Source: Anaerolineae bacterium
GTDB taxonomy: Bacteria > Chloroflexota > Anaerolineae > UBA1429
Assembly (NCBI GenBank): GCA_963675785.1
Contig: OY776562.1
Location: 832,001 to 896,000 of the forward strand
Direction: 5' to 3'
Length of the DNA stretch: 64,000 nt
In this document: positions 17,024-26,294 of the stretch, in pieces
Layout: each line of letters begins with the position of its first letter
Numbering within the stretch: position 1 is the stretch's first letter
Program-made: the position numbers and the translations under genes
Notes under the pieces: model-generated
Told to the model about the DNA's origin: nothing
Databases searched by the model: none
The model's input: only the letters and a program-made list of their open reading frames with translations

Positions 17024-17833
17024 TCAGCTCCCCGTCGAATGATAATGGCGTTCGCCGTAGCGCCAGATGCGCAGCGATACGAGCATGAACACTACGCCGA
17101 TGAGCGGCGAGACCCACTGAAACCAGGCTGGCATACCCAGCGGATCAGCTTTGCTCAGGATGGCCAACCCCGGAAAATAGTTGACTGCTGCCAGAGGGAT
17201 GACAAAGATGAAAATGGCCCGGAACCAGGGGCGGTAAACGGAAAGAGGGTACTGGGCCGTCTCGACGCCGCCATAGGTGACGGCGTTCACGACCTCTAGC
17301 GTGCCAGCGGTGATCCACCAAAAGGAGAGGGTGGCCTGCAGCACAAACACGCCGCAAAACAGGCAGGCGCCGCAGCACACTGCTCCGATGAGGAGCAAGA
17401 CTTTGGGGATCGTCCATATCACGTCCAGGGCAAAGGCAGCCCAAAGCAGGATAAAGAGGCCCTGGGCAAAGCGGCCCACGCGGCGAATTTGAAATTCGCT
17501 GCCGGCCACCTGCAAGGCGGTGCCCTGGGGACGCAGCATCATGCGGTCGAATTCACCGTGGCGCACCATGCTATCGAAATTATCAAAGCCTCGGGCGGCA
17601 GCTTCCGAGATGGCAAAGGACATGTTGATCATGCCGTAATAGAGGGCGATTTCGGGCAGCGTCCAGCCGATGATGGTGCCAAAGCGGTCGAAGAGAGCCC
17701 AAACGCCCACGAATTCCAGGCCGATGCGAAAAATCATGCCGATGGTATCCATGATGAACGAGGCGCGGTACTGCATTTGCGCCCGAATAGAGGCCGCCAC
17801 ATAGTGGCCGTAGAGGCTGAGCGTTTGACGCAT
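17024..17833 (-). CDS. ABC-2 type transporter permease (DUF990-like), second permease
   Basis: QMQYRASF, GWT..E, VRHGEFDRMMLRP, YPLSVY, FVIPLA...YFP and C-terminal YHSTGS. Confidence 0.9.
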   Translation of the reverse strand: MRQTLSLYGHYVAASIRAQMQYRASFIMDTIGMIFRIGLEFVGVWALFDRFGTIIGWTLPEIALYYGMINMSFAISEAAARGFDNFDSMVRHGEFDRMMLRPQGTALQVAGSEFQIRRVGRFAQGLFILLWAAFALDVIWTIPKVLLLIGAVCCGACLFCGVFVLQATLSFWWITAGTLEVVNAVTYGGVETAQYPLSVYRPWFRAIFIFVIPLAAVNYFPGLAILSKADPLGMPAWFQWVSPLIGVVFMLVSLRIWRYGERHYHSTGS

Positions 17834-19622: not shown

Positions 19623-19673
19623 CGGGCTTTGCCCGGCTATCGGTTGCCATTGAAGCGCAAATTTGGTGATGTG

Positions 19674-19783
19674 TCTCCGAATCATTGTACCTAAAGCGTG
19701 AGCCAAGGTGCTTTGATCGCGCCCCTGGATGGGGCAAACGGTGTGGCTGGAAACGGCCACGCCCCCCGTGTTTGGAAAGGAGA
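19674..19783 (+). ncRNA. Molybdenum cofactor (Moco) riboswitch-like RNA
   Basis: Ordered hallmarks CTCCGA...CCTAA...GCCAAGG...GCCCC/GGGGC hairpin...GGT-GTGGCT-GGAAAC-GGCCAC-GCC-CCCCG...TGGAAAGGAG; TCTCC/GGAGA closes P1. Lies upstream of a molybdopterin-oxidoreductase-like gene. Confidence 0.85.
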
Positions 19784-19822
19784 GCGGCACATTTGTGCCG
19801 TGTATATCATCGGAGGCTTTGT

Positions 19823-20233
19823 ATGGCAAGAAAAGTATCTACCCTGTCCCTTGTGATGTTGTGTCTGGTTGTGGTGCTGGCGGGCTGCGGCAGTGACGAG
19901 GTTGAAAAGACCGGCACTGTGCTGACCATCAATGGCACGGAATACTACCAGAGTGAAATCGAAGCGATGGACCAGGTGACAATTACTGCAACTCATCCCA
20001 AATCGGGCGAGGTCGCTGACTATACGGGCGTGAGCCTGTTGAACCTACTCGACGACGCCGGGCTTGCAGCGGATACCATCACCGCGGTGGCATCGGATGG
20101 CTATGAGGTAGAGATTGTGATGGCAGATATCCCTGACACGGCGTTGTTGGTGATCGAGGATGGCACCTACCGTCTGATCATGCCTGATATGTCTAGTTCG
20201 GCCTGGGCTAAAGAGGTCGTCGAGATTCGTTAG
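19823..20233 (+). CDS. Lipoprotein with molybdopterin-oxidoreductase (SUOX-fold)-like domain, copy 1
   Basis: LAGC lipobox; YTGVSL..LL..AG, ASDGY, RLIMP...WAK.V..I motifs; GGAGG RBS before ATG 19823 (an in-frame TTG at 19793 is also possible). Confidence 0.8.
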   Translation: MARKVSTLSLVMLCLVVVLAGCGSDEVEKTGTVLTINGTEYYQSEIEAMDQVTITATHPKSGEVADYTGVSLLNLLDDAGLAADTITAVASDGYEVEIVMADIPDTALLVIEDGTYRLIMPDMSSSAWAKEVVEIR

Positions 20234-20405
20234 TGAATTTGCAGTGGCAACCGAAGAGCAAATGCATACCGGGGAGCCTGGCTCCCCGGCTTGCTATTTG
20301 TGGGCAAGTGACTAGGATGCACTGTAAAACAGCGTGAAAGAGTTCAAGCTTCTGGCTGTTGCGGGTTTGCGGCGTGTTGCATCGTTTCTGTTGGCGGAGG
20401 TTTGC

Positions 20406-20888
20406 ATGGCGAGAAAAGCGGCTGCTCTGTCTTTTGTGATTTTGGGCCTGATGGTGATGCTGGCGGGTTGTGGTGGTGACGCGGTTGAAAAGACGGGTTC
20501 TGTGTTGACCGTTAATGGCCGCGGATTCTATGAGAGCGAGCTCGAAGCGATGGAGCAGGTGACGGTGACGGCGACACACCCCAGATCGGGGGAGACGGCC
20601 GAGTATATGGGCGTGAGCTTGTTGGCACTGCTGGACGATGCCGATTTTGTAGGGGACACCATCACGGTGGTGGCGGCGGATGGCTATGAGACGGAGATCG
20701 TAGTGGCGGAGATTCCGGATACGGCGCTGGTGGTGATTGAGAAGGGGGACTATAGCGTGCTGGGCTATACGCCAGAGCCGGACAAGCCGGCAAGTGTGGT
20801 GGTAGGCGTTGAAGAGGACACGTTCCGCTTGATTATGCCGGATATGGGCAGTTCGGCCTGGGTGAAAGACGTGTTCGAGATTCGCTAA
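20406..20888 (+). CDS. Lipoprotein with molybdopterin-oxidoreductase-like domain, copy 2 (tandem paralogue)
   Basis: LAGC lipobox; colinear with copy 1 plus a 24-aa insertion; GGAGG RBS. Confidence 0.8.
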   Translation: MARKAAALSFVILGLMVMLAGCGGDAVEKTGSVLTVNGRGFYESELEAMEQVTVTATHPRSGETAEYMGVSLLALLDDADFVGDTITVVAADGYETEIVVAEIPDTALVVIEKGDYSVLGYTPEPDKPASVVVGVEEDTFRLIMPDMGSSAWVKDVFEIR

Positions 20889-20986
20889 GGCGCGAATAGG
20901 GCACAGAGGCTGGGGGGCTTGGCTCCCCAGCTTGCCATTTGGCGGTAAAGCGATTAGGATGCGCCGCAGCAGGACTGGAGGGTTTG

Positions 20987-24421: not shown

Positions 24422-25213
24422 TTAGCCGCCCTGTATCACCATGCGTTTCAGGCCGTGTTTCAATATCAATTGGCTGATGAATGCAATTGCCAGCGTCCAG
24501 ATGAGCTGCTGCCCCAGTAGTGCGAACACCTCAGAGGCAGCCAGGTCCCCAATCCAGAGCCGAAAAGGCACATCGGCAATGCCCCGGAAGGGCAAAAAGT
24601 TGAGGATACCCTGGGCCCAATCGGGCATTAGCGGCAGCGGTACAAGGCTGCCGGAAAACAAGGCTACGCTGCCCAGCAGCAGCATGGATATGCCATTGCC
24701 CGAAATCGTCCAGACGCTGACAGTCGAAGCCAGTGTGGTTAGTGCGGCCGAGAGCAGGGCGGCACCGACAATGGAGAGCATAAAGGCACCGAACGCCGCC
24801 CACGAAACTGGCAGTTCCAGGCCAAAGAATGGAATCGTAATGAGGAACATGGGCAGGGCTCGCAATAGCGTGGGGGCTGTGCGCAAGGCCAACCCTCGGG
24901 CGAACCAGCTCCAATAGACGCTGACGGGCCGAAGCATCTGATAGACGACATCGCCGCTGCGTATGCTCTGCACCAGTTCGTTATCCAGGCGATAGGGCGT
25001 CAGGTGAAAGAGAGCCTGCCCCAACCACACATAGCTTACTGTTTGTTCAAAGGTCAAAGGCTGCGCGGCGGTGGTGGTGCGATAAAAGGCATCAAAGATC
25101 ATGATGCGGATAACACCCCAAAAGAACTGGGTGGCCAGGCCAGCCAGAGCCGCCTCCCGATATTGCAAGAGCATACGAAACTGGGCGCTGAATCGGGCAA
25201 GGTAGGGTCTCAT
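24422..25213 (-). CDS. ABC-2 type transporter permease (DUF990-like), first permease
   Basis: LQYR, YVWLGQ, IRSGDV.YQMLRP, FSG.LVPL, LPF and C-terminal VIQGG. Confidence 0.9.
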   Translation of the reverse strand: MRPYLARFSAQFRMLLQYREAALAGLATQFFWGVIRIMIFDAFYRTTTAAQPLTFEQTVSYVWLGQALFHLTPYRLDNELVQSIRSGDVVYQMLRPVSVYWSWFARGLALRTAPTLLRALPMFLITIPFFGLELPVSWAAFGAFMLSIVGAALLSAALTTLASTVSVWTISGNGISMLLLGSVALFSGSLVPLPLMPDWAQGILNFLPFRGIADVPFRLWIGDLAASEVFALLGQQLIWTLAIAFISQLILKHGLKRMVIQGG

Positions 25214-26193
25214 TGCCCTTCACCCTCGTAGAATCGCGCAATGATCTCTTCGATGGGTGGGTTTTCGACGTATAGATCACTTACGGCGTGTTCTGAGGTT
25301 ACACGGGCGATCATTTCAGCGGTGGGCACATGCGTCGGATCAAAAGCCAGGATGACCTGTCCGTCGTCCTGGCGCACCACGCGCAAGTCGGGATCAGCGA
25401 AAATCTCTTCCGAATGGGTCAGCGTTAATCTCAGATGGCGTTCTGAGGAGACCTGCTTGCGCAGACCATCTAGCTTGCCATCGAACAAGAGCTGCCCGTT
25501 GTTAATGAGCATGATTCGCCTGCAGAGCGCCTCAATATCATCCATGTCGTGTGTGGTGAGGATGACGGTTACGTTGCGGCGTTCGTTCAATTCGCGAATA
25601 AAATCACGCACGGCGAGCTTGGACACGGCATCTAGGCCGATGGTGGGCTCGTCCAGAAAAAGAATGCTCGGTTTGTGCAAAAGCGAAGCGGCCAGATCAC
25701 AGCGCATACGTTGACCCAGCGAGAGCTGCCGGACTGGCGTATCGAGAAGGCTTTGCAGCGAGAGCAGCTCGACTAATTCGTCGAGGCTGTCGCGATAAGT
25801 AGTCTCGGATACGCGATAGATCTCTTTGAGCAGTTGAAAGGACTCGACGACTGGCAGGTCCCACCAGAGCTGGGTACGCTGACCAAACACCACACCAATC
25901 CTGGAGACATGGCTCCTTCTGGATTCCCAGGGCACCAGATCATCGACAATGCAAGCGCCAGAAGTTGGCACGAGAATCCCCGAGAGGATCTTGATGGTGG
26001 TAGATTTGCCGGCGCCGTTGGGGCCAATATAGCCAACGAGCTCGCCGCGCTCGATGTCAAAAGAGAGGTTCCGCAAGGCCTGAATATCTTTGTATTCGCG
26101 CTTGAATACGCCGCGGACTGCTCCCCAGGCGCCCGAGTCGCGCTTGGCAATGCGGTAGGTTTTGCAGAGGTCAGAGACGTGAACAAAGGCCAT
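25210..26193 (-). CDS. ABC transporter ATP-binding protein (ABC-2 exporter)
   Basis: GPNGAGKST, FGQRTQLWWDLP, LSLGQRMR, LDEPTIGLD, TTH; start placed at ATG 26193. Confidence 0.93.
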   Translation of the reverse strand: MAFVHVSDLCKTYRIAKRDSGAWGAVRGVFKREYKDIQALRNLSFDIERGELVGYIGPNGAGKSTTIKILSGILVPTSGACIVDDLVPWESRRSHVSRIGVVFGQRTQLWWDLPVVESFQLLKEIYRVSETTYRDSLDELVELLSLQSLLDTPVRQLSLGQRMRCDLAASLLHKPSILFLDEPTIGLDAVSKLAVRDFIRELNERRNVTVILTTHDMDDIEALCRRIMLINNGQLLFDGKLDGLRKQVSSERHLRLTLTHSEEIFADPDLRVVRQDDGQVILAFDPTHVPTAEMIARVTSEHAVSDLYVENPPIEEIIARFYEGEGQ

Positions 26194-26294
26194 CGAGTTT
26201 CTCACAGGGTAAACGGTTGTTTGCAGGCTGTTGATATTACTCGATGAAGTCACAAGAGGCAAGCCCGCGCTAGAATCGCGCGGGCTTGATTTGA

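Follow-up and report, generated by a model that had tools for sequence, protein, structure and literature searches.

A Moco riboswitch precedes a duplicated pair of pterin-fold lipoproteins in an Anaerolineae bacterium: candidate capture proteins for cofactor salvage

Results

The locus and its riboswitch

The window analysed here is a 64-kb (64,000-nt) stretch from the genome of an Anaerolineae bacterium (assembly GCA_963675785.1, contig OY776562.1, positions 832,001 to 896,000), and positions given below are those of the window unless another locus is named. Within it, a riboswitch of the molybdenum cofactor (Moco) type stands directly upstream of genes A and B, a duplicated pair encoding small putative lipoproteins in which we recognize a shortened form of the Moco-binding fold of the sulfite oxidase (SUOX) family. 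The features of this locus are as follows.

19663..19798, + strand: Moco riboswitch aptamer of the P3-containing type (Rfam RF01055 match)
19779..19822, + strand: predicted expression platform from the minimum-free-energy fold, comprising the 3' strand of an extended P1, an inserted hairpin (19785-19800) and a GGAGG ribosome-binding site (19812-19816)
19823..20233, + strand: gene A, a 136-aa predicted Sec-type lipoprotein (LAGC) with one PruR-like truncated SUOX-fold domain
20269..20299, + strand: terminator-like hairpin (20269-20289; 9-bp stem, 8 G-C pairs) and T-rich tail after gene A
20406..20888, + strand: gene B, a 160-aa paralogue of A with a 24-residue insertion and without an aptamer of its own
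20910..20940, + strand: second copy of the hairpin and tail, aligned to the first, at the end of the duplicated unit

The aptamer matches RF01055 over the full length of the model (positions 1-135), scoring 73.9 bits where the gathering score is 36 (E 5.6e-16); no other Rfam match in the window reaches its gathering score. Its GCCCC/GGGGC hairpin fills the P3 columns of the model, and its P4 loop is GAAA. The covariance model thus upholds both the complete Moco-RNA-like element and the P3-like hairpin that had been proposed from inspection of the letters alone (hereafter the sequence-only reading). A minimum-free-energy fold of 19655-19845 (-78.1 kcal/mol, z -3.76, equalled by none of 200 shuffles) keeps the aptamer and extends its P1, such that 19657-19678 is paired with 19779-19783 and 19803-19822. 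The predicted pairing masks three bases (G19812-A19814) of the GGAGG, as well as five bases immediately 5' of the AUG at 19823. Because the ribosome-binding site would be covered by the extended P1 when cofactor is bound, we infer an OFF switch, and the predicted fold fits a translational switch of the kind described for E. coli moaA (PMC2408646). A promoter scan found no sigma-70-like promoter 5' of the aptamer; the host may use other promoter types.

The aptamer is separated from gene A by 24 bases, and gene A from gene B by 172. What has been duplicated is a unit of ribosome-binding site, gene and G+C-rich hairpin with T-rich tail, without the aptamer: no Rfam match up to E 10 occurs in 20200-20450, by which an aptamer belonging to gene B was ruled out. 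With no aptamer at B and a hairpin between the two genes, control of B by the switch depends on read-through at 20269-20289. The hairpin alone proves little, given that two terminator-like sites were found in the region and 1.5 are expected by chance from shuffles. A 385-nt contig from one metatranscriptome library covers 19838-20202 of gene A with 7 mismatches and 3 gap positions over 365 bases, which is a weak hint of expression, as such libraries can contain DNA. Gene B and the leader had no metatranscriptome cover, save for 33 nt of conserved aptamer core that derives from other organisms; contigs of this sort show neither transcript ends nor level, and are uninformative on co-transcription of A and B.

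Two acidic, Cys-less members of the SUOX fold

The products of A and B share 60% identity (96/160), with a 24-residue insertion in B. In each, the N-terminal MARK leads into a hydrophobic stretch and then a lipobox (LAGC, residues 19-22), so that both have the charged N-terminus, hydrophobic stretch and lipobox Cys by which bacterial lipoproteins are predicted. Neither signal peptide (MARKVSTL... in A, MARKAAAL... in B) contains a twin arginine. Beyond the lipid-anchor Cys, each mature protein has no Cys, a single His and a pI of 4.05, Asp plus Glu outnumbering Lys plus Arg by 22 to 5 in A and by 27 to 8 in B. In these respects the pair is as the sequence-only reading described it, namely two small, acidic LAGC lipoproteins, duplicated, with no Cys in the mature protein other than the lipidated one. 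The motifs that it listed (YTGV.L..LL, ASDGY and RL.MP...W.K) are present, in A as YTGVSLLNLL, ASDGY and RLIMPDMSSSAWAK, but are not identical in both proteins, B having YMGV, AADGY and ...AWVK in their place.

Sequence similarity to known families is slight. Against PF00174, the SUOX Moco-binding domain, A scores 16.9 bits and B 11.5, both below the Pfam cut-off of 24, and an NCBIfam search gave a partial match only, far sub-threshold. A word-indexed protein search recovered nothing but the query protein and an adapter-truncated fragment of 74 aa; the family came to light only with a full hidden Markov model search, in which an A+B profile recovered 197 relatives at E <=0.001 (36 at <=1e-10) from 1.84 billion representatives. 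We analysed 148 listed relatives, setting aside the protein itself and its fragment; among these, 84 have a lipobox and four a Tat-like motif (by a loose pattern), and many contain 2-6 copies of the domain after Pro/Thr-rich linkers. An A-C-x-D-C stretch found in most relatives reads P-D-T-A-L in A and B, so that 'Cys-less' describes this pair and a few others and not the whole family.

For mature A, AlphaFold modelling from 55 aligned sequences gave a predicted local distance difference test score (pLDDT) of 92.6 and a predicted template-modelling score (pTM) of 0.81. Among solved structures, PruR pterin-binding proteins lie nearest to the model: Foldseek gives E 3.2e-5 for 7kom, and a VIA comparison gives Z 14.1 and a root-mean-square deviation of 2.0 Å over 105 of 114 residues. 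The Moco domains of SoxC (Z 13.4), SorA (13.3) and chicken sulfite oxidase (13.2), each with 108-109 residues aligned, are statistically tied with PruR as matches to the model, and YedY follows at 10.4. A sequence profile search likewise ranks PruR first for the A/B family (E 2.2e-6). The SUOX-type fold anticipated by the sequence-only reading is therefore found in the model, in the Cys-less, non-catalytic form known from PruR.

PruR is a secreted and possibly lipidated protein with a Cys-less, truncated SUOX fold that binds monapterin and neopterin; the pterin ring is sandwiched by Tyr104 and Trp160 and hydrogen-bonded by Asn102, and Trp70 sits where SUOX enzymes carry the Mo-ligating Cys (PMC11194511). 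In the profile alignment the family D-G-Y falls on N-D-Y of PruR, with Asp in place of Asn and its Tyr on the pterin-stacking Tyr. The family H-P-K falls on T-P-W, its Lys aligned with Trp70 and hence with the Cys position. The sequence-only reading had placed the His of TATHP at that position, which the alignment contradicts: this His lies two residues earlier. Trp106 aligns with the Trp of WVK in SorA; the printed PruR alignment ends before the Trp160 region. In the mature numbering of A, the residues of interest are His36, Lys38, Tyr72 and Trp106.

Conservation, counted over 262 copies of the domain, is highest in DGY, which aligns with N-D-Y of PruR. In DGY, the Asp is kept in 256/258 copies, the Gly in 243/258 and an aromatic Tyr or Phe in 249/258; toward the C-terminus, Trp106 is kept in 145/190 and the Lys that follows it in 141/188. 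Lower values are found for the His, Pro and Lys of HPK (81/184, 92/195 and 100/201, respectively). From the model, then, A and B appear to be PruR-size members of the SUOX fold that keep the pterin-stacking Tyr of PruR and perhaps its second stacking residue, and a Cys-less, truncated domain of ~100 residues suggests ligand binders and not enzymes. The absence of Cys, a Lys at the Cys position, a short hairpin and a lipoprotein signal likewise favour the non-catalytic surface proteins envisaged by the sequence-only reading. Known exported Moco enzymes fold around their cofactor in the cytoplasm and leave by the twin-arginine (Tat) route. Export of A and B by the Sec/lipoprotein route would mean that no cofactor loaded in the cytoplasm could be carried.

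It is useful to set A and B beside the two groups they most resemble. PruR of Agrobacterium tumefaciens (Atu3496; PDB 7kos/7kou, 7kom, 7kp2, 7rkb) is, like them, a small exported protein of truncated SUOX fold with no Mo-ligating Cys and with a pterin-stacking Tyr (Y104) aligned to the Tyr of DGY. It differs in having a Pro-Trp motif where A and B have His-Pro-Lys, and a DcpA-type partner gene, which A and B lack. A and B for their part are under control of a Moco riboswitch, have relatives fused to transporter subunits, belong to a different clade and are ~25 residues shorter. With the SUOX family proper (PF00174: sulfite oxidase, SorA, SoxC, YedY/MsrP) they share the fold and the G-V-x-L, DGY and P-x(6)-W-V-K motifs, and they depart from it in their sub-cut-off Pfam scores, missing Cys ligand, truncated ligand hairpin, Sec instead of Tat export and want of catalytic partner domains.

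Cofactor synthesis, metal uptake and cofactor users

The host genome (G000) is a single contig of 3.22 Mb, 94.84% complete with 1.29% contamination. It contains no match to MoaC, MoeA_N, the MoaA C-domain or MoaE, each of which matched 11 of 14 reference genomes as a control. A single PF00994 match was ruled out as a cofactor-synthesis gene, since it is CinA. With proteins of relatives as queries, no homologue of TupA, ModA-like, ModB, MoaA or MoaB-like proteins was found in the genome; strong PF12849/PF13531 matches were ruled out as Tup/Mod proteins, being a double PstS phosphate-binding protein. Among the proteins of this genome, only a 304-aa lipoprotein (G000:C1:2302389-2303300, minus strand) is left as a possible oxyanion-binding protein.

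Users of the cofactor are nevertheless kept. There are three genes of the aldehyde-ferredoxin oxidoreductase (AOR) family, a 706-aa DmsA-family protein (TIGR02166, 512 bits, below the cut-off of 777.7) and a 213-aa MobA-like protein (TIGR02665, 102 bits, below the cut-off of 152). A gene content in which users and a last tailoring step are kept, while synthesis and metal uptake were not found, is typical of a cofactor salvager. The salvage route that the sequence-only reading raised as a possibility gains support from this combination of retained Mo/W-pterin enzymes with no MoaA, MoaC, MoaE or MoeA match.

A different 213-aa protein of the genome, a lipoprotein with a full PF00174 domain (110 bits; L005 1264-1905, G000:C1:1011750-1012391), has a Cys (VCPG) near the expected ligand position and a Sec-type, not Tat-type, signal, and is not preceded by a riboswitch. 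It may be an exported SUOX-like protein obliged to obtain its cofactor extracellularly.

Other riboswitches of the genome and the ECF operon

Three Moco riboswitches were found in the host genome, all ahead of genes with an A-type domain: that of A and B, one ahead of a third lipoprotein, and one ahead of an operon for an energy-coupling factor (ECF) transporter. A profile of the domain run over all six-frame open reading frames (ORFs) of the genome detects five ORFs only, four of them behind these riboswitches. The ECF operon, behind the second riboswitch, encodes the following.

S-component fusion: 452-aa protein, N-terminal half an ECF S component (PF09819, 59.7 bits), C-terminal half two A-type domains
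ATPase: fused double ATP-binding cassette (ABC) ATPase
T component: CbiQ-type
L004 9923-11845: 640-aa protein with 4Fe-4S and CCG (HdrD-like) domains
L004 11842-12690: 282-aa protein with no Pfam match
L004 12521-13825, last gene: PF01663 type I phosphodiesterase/nucleotide pyrophosphatase (66 bits)

Hydropathy of the S-component fusion indicates an extra helix near residues 195-215, although hydropathy alone does not fix the topology. The redox partner in this operon might keep a pterin or dithiolene reduced, and the PF01663 enzyme could trim dinucleotide forms of the cofactor. The order of the 640-aa and 282-aa genes (G000:C1:3127922-3130689) is kept in another genome, G021 (L046); the PF01663 gene was not found in the ECF operon of G021. 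The third riboswitch is convergent with the ECF operon, and precedes another Cys-less lipoprotein (L004 13875-14375, minus strand), which does pass PF00174 (53.6 bits).

The thiamine-precursor transporter YkoEDC is likewise riboswitch-controlled. Transporters of this type (group I ECF) resemble the operon described here in their PF09819 S component, fused double ATPase, CbiQ-type T component and riboswitch control. The present operon, which lies outside the 64-kb window, differs in having a Moco-type and not a thiamine pyrophosphate (TPP)-type switch, and an S component with an extra predicted membrane helix and two SUOX-like domains predicted to be external.

The riboswitches are themselves of two kinds. 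P3 is absent, by alignment, from the ECF-operon switches of G000 and of a second genome, G002, and all 11 ECF-linked riboswitches in the 61 genomes described below are short (113-130 nt), length being only a proxy for P3 absence. Those delimited on each side of this split are:

P3-less, ahead of an ECF operon: L002 1501-1628; L037 8839-8957
P3-containing, ahead of free lipoproteins: window 19663-19798; L003 1501-1649; L037 3788-3927

P3-less RNAs have been tied to the tungsten cofactor and P3-containing RNAs to Moco by Regulski et al. 2008 (PMC2408646). The regulon described there (moaABCDE, modABC, tup genes and Moco enzymes) is served by the same RNA family in both of these types, and in relatives of our host the switch also precedes moa/moe and tup/mod-like genes; the host genome differs in that the switch is found on non-catalytic lipoproteins and an ECF transporter, with no synthesis genes left.

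Distribution among relatives and across the class

To place the locus more widely we used a set of 61 genomes, comprising the family of the host and one genome per family of the class. Many contigs in this set are short, so that counts linking domain and riboswitch are lower bounds. The riboswitch is present in 50 genomes (136 copies), MoaC in 54 and MoeA_N in 53. A domain-only profile gives 94 matches in 32 genomes, of which at least 60 lie no more than 3.5 kb downstream of a riboswitch on the same strand (at least 42 within 1 kb), and at least 47 of the 136 riboswitches are followed by the domain. First-ORF calls after the riboswitch at 29 loci were mostly spurious high-GC frames, and were used for a few recognizable N-termini and not for counts.

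MoaC and MoeA_N are both unmatched in seven genomes from four genera, the host genome among them, and all seven retain 2-4 riboswitches. In five of these (G002, G021, G024, G030 and G035) the inspected riboswitches drive an operon of S-component fusion, ATPase and T component together with one or two tandem lipoproteins, and AOR genes are kept in all five. No TupA part was found in the five, in which only the small-domain part of a TupA-fusion query was matched, and a ModA-like query returned nothing in them in a search without a positive control. In G010 (82% complete), which also lacks both synthesis genes, one riboswitch drives the gene for a domain-bearing 553-aa protein, and the S-component fusion was not found. 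Another riboswitch of G010 (contig C441, L030 from 1688) is followed by a MobA-like nucleotidyl transferase, a first-ORF call identified by N-terminal sequence only.

Eleven of the 61 genomes carry the S-component fusion, always with a riboswitch 62-301 nt upstream; it is found in 6 of the 7 lacking synthesis genes versus 5 of the 54 others. The same tendency appears in a class-wide sample of 401 genomes of completeness 85% or more, in which 33 genomes from 25 of 217 genera carry the fusion. A MoaC match is lacking in 16/33 carriers against 27/368 non-carriers, an odds ratio of 11.9, for which the p-value is overstated because the genomes are related; the 16 MoaC-lacking carriers span eight families. 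One genome in these tallies, G351, is flagged as unpublished and contributes a single count. In two further carriers MoaC is split across two frames or reduced to a 40-residue remnant (G278:C14:81114-81540; G256:C3:14597-14716), and these may be pseudogenes, with loss of the pathway under way.

The domain also occurs in a second kind of operon. In G020 a riboswitch is followed by genes for a 313-aa protein, an ABC ATPase, a TupA-like protein (PF12849, 169.5 bits; L048 2235-3605) with a C-terminal A-type domain, a multi-domain lipoprotein and a ModA-like protein. In G038 the riboswitch precedes a 518-aa multi-domain lipoprotein that is the best match to A (147 bits), followed by ModA-like, ModB, MoaA and MoaC. 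Of the 13 non-self matches that score 100 bits or higher, 12 are located 0.7-2.9 kb downstream of a riboswitch, distances that agree with the two operon types annotated, those of G020 and G038. Protein P0068 is a further TupA-like (PF12849) protein with a C-terminal small SUOX-like domain in a riboswitch-controlled ABC operon. The homologues are thus tied to Moco RNAs and to Mo/W transport, through ECF S components and TupA-like fusions, an association that the sequence-only reading had named as a check.

Neighbouring genes

The genes adjoining A and B encode xylose-isomerase-like TIM barrels, a Gfo/Idh/MocA oxidoreductase and an alpha/beta hydrolase, all sugar-type enzymes, with no DcpA-type cyclase/phosphodiesterase gene among them; in agreement with the sequence-only reading, the neighbours include no Mo or W gene and no MsrQ-like partner. 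Multi-pass membrane ORFs and an ABC ATPase-like ORF, judged from their translations only, flank this cluster (17024-17833; 24422-26262, minus strand), and nothing about them hints at a link to Mo or W.

Discussion

Taking together the riboswitch, the fold, the type of export signal, the gene content of the genome and the genomic associations of the locus, we favour, at about even chances, the view that A and B are surface capture proteins of a cofactor- or pterin-salvage route. In such a route the P3-containing riboswitch would govern at least gene A, and gene B too if the intervening hairpin is read through, with binding of the cofactor presumably causing the extended P1 to cover the ribosome-binding site and turn expression off. 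The two proteins would be exported unfolded via the Sec/lipoprotein route and tethered to the outer face of the membrane, there to capture a ready-made pterin cofactor, perhaps Moco, its tungsten form or a close derivative. They would then hand it to the riboswitch-controlled ECF transporter encoded elsewhere in the genome, whose S subunit is predicted to carry two copies of the A-type domain on its outer side. A genome in which no genes for synthesis, metal insertion or Tup/Mod uptake were found, but which has AOR, DmsA-family and MobA-like proteins, argues that ready-made cofactor is most likely what A and B capture. Salvage would account for the survival of lipoproteins and switches without synthesis genes, for a pterin-type fold, for Sec export and for fusion to a vitamin-type S component, while the TupA fusions must be treated as a second use of the domain.

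Several observations weigh against salvage of whole cofactor by A and B. The closest relatives of the A domain are fused to TupA or stand in operons with ModA/ModB-like genes, in relatives that make the cofactor, which points to an oxyanion as ligand, and the 304-aa lipoprotein of the host has a weak PBP_like_2 match (33 bits). The cleft of PruR is truncated, holds small pterins and is too short for Moco (PMC11194511); since A and B are smaller still, whole Moco may not fit. Following the distinction drawn for P3, the lipoproteins and the ECF transporter may answer to different cofactors or ligands, and gene B may escape riboswitch control. Nor is the system restricted to auxotrophs, given that 17 of the 33 carriers of the ECF fusion have MoaC. 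Finally, a MobA-like gene is convincing only in the host genome and not in the five other MoaC-lacking genomes, where matches reach at most 26.7 bits, in a search that is uninformative because the control matched all 14 references at the threshold used.

The first of these points leads to the most substantial alternative, that the domain acts as an antenna on the cell surface, collecting tungstate, molybdate or forms that TupA and ModA cannot take, so that A and B would feed uptake of metal and not of cofactor. The G020 operon speaks for this directly, since there the domain forms the C-terminus of a TupA-like protein behind a riboswitch and beside ABC transporter genes. That fusion also contains a TTTS stretch, which we take to be the tungstate motif of TupA. 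In G038 the strongest match to A is the first gene of an operon that continues with ModA-like, ModB, MoaA and MoaC, and the distances of the other strong matches from their riboswitches fit the same pattern. An antenna for metal is harder to reconcile with the persistence of lipoproteins and intact riboswitches in genomes where free metal would be useless, namely the seven of 61 in which MoaC and MoeA_N are unmatched; in the host, MoaA C-domain and MoaE are unmatched as well. No TupA, ModA or ModB homologue was found in the host for such an antenna to serve, and five further genomes of the kind yielded no TupA part and nothing for ModA-like, though the latter search had no positive control. 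In addition, the positions under strongest conservation correspond to ones that bind the pterin ring in PruR, and the strong acidity of the proteins (pI 4.05) is unfavourable for anion binding. We consider oxyanion capture unlikely on balance, though far from negligible.

The resemblance to PruR invites another explanation, in which A and B sense or carry small pterins other than Moco in signalling or some other non-transport role. PruR is their best solved match by both fold and sequence profile, and is itself a secreted, possibly lipidated Cys-less SUOX fold that binds monapterin and neopterin (PMC11194511). Such a role sits poorly with a Moco riboswitch as the control element and with the repeated fusion of the family to transporter parts, both ECF S subunits and TupA-like proteins; moreover, no DcpA-like gene lies beside A and B, and the Pro-Trp motif of PruR is replaced by His-Pro-Lys, so that we regard it as improbable. 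Less probable by far is that A and B are small Moco-dependent oxidoreductases of the MsrP/sulfite oxidase type whose synthesis is tuned to cofactor supply. Moco RNAs do occur upstream of putative sulfite oxidase genes in Syntrophomonas wolfei (Regulski et al. 2008, PMC2408646), and A and B have weak similarity to PF00174 (16.9 and 11.5 bits). Both scores fall under the cut-off, the mature proteins are free of Cys and have Lys in its position on a hairpin as short as that of PruR, and the signal peptides have no twin arginine; the domain, at only ~100 residues, has no partner domain, and there is no MsrQ-like gene. We give this last possibility very little credence.

The general view is that Moco is too unstable to act as a nutrient. 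Most organisms are unable to take it up, according to PMC9026282. Our literature searches returned no paper that joins a Moco riboswitch to an ECF transporter, and related searches turned up no description of such a system, as judged from titles, abstract openings and parts of PMC3766115. On Moco uptake, transporters, import or salvage they returned, by titles and abstract openings, only work on nematodes and general reviews. Peng et al. 2018 reported 'orphan' molybdoenzymes without a synthesis pathway in several hundred genomes, for which they suggest unknown synthesis components or Mo-independent forms of the enzymes; the sections of that paper available to us contain no proposal of uptake (PMC6147048). 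It is tempting to speculate, somewhat more tentatively than for the capture role of A and B itself, that the lipoproteins and the ECF transporter constitute the first bacterial uptake pathway for ready-made Mo/W cofactor, one that lets lineages drop synthesis and so explains such orphan-molybdoenzyme genomes.

New here are the free-standing lipoprotein pair, its match to PruR, the split of riboswitch types, the TupA fusions, and synthesis genes without a match alongside retained users, in the host genome and in other lineages. The preferred reading, cofactor salvage, brings together a cofactor-sensing RNA, pterin-fold surface proteins, a vitamin-type importer, retained enzymes and loss of synthesis in several families, and makes the A/B locus and its partners a testable candidate for bacterial salvage of this cofactor. 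If it is true, ready-made cofactor would be a new cross-feeding currency in anaerobic communities and a new class of substrate for ECF transporters, and the A-type domain would be a natural Moco-binding module that could help to stabilise the cofactor.

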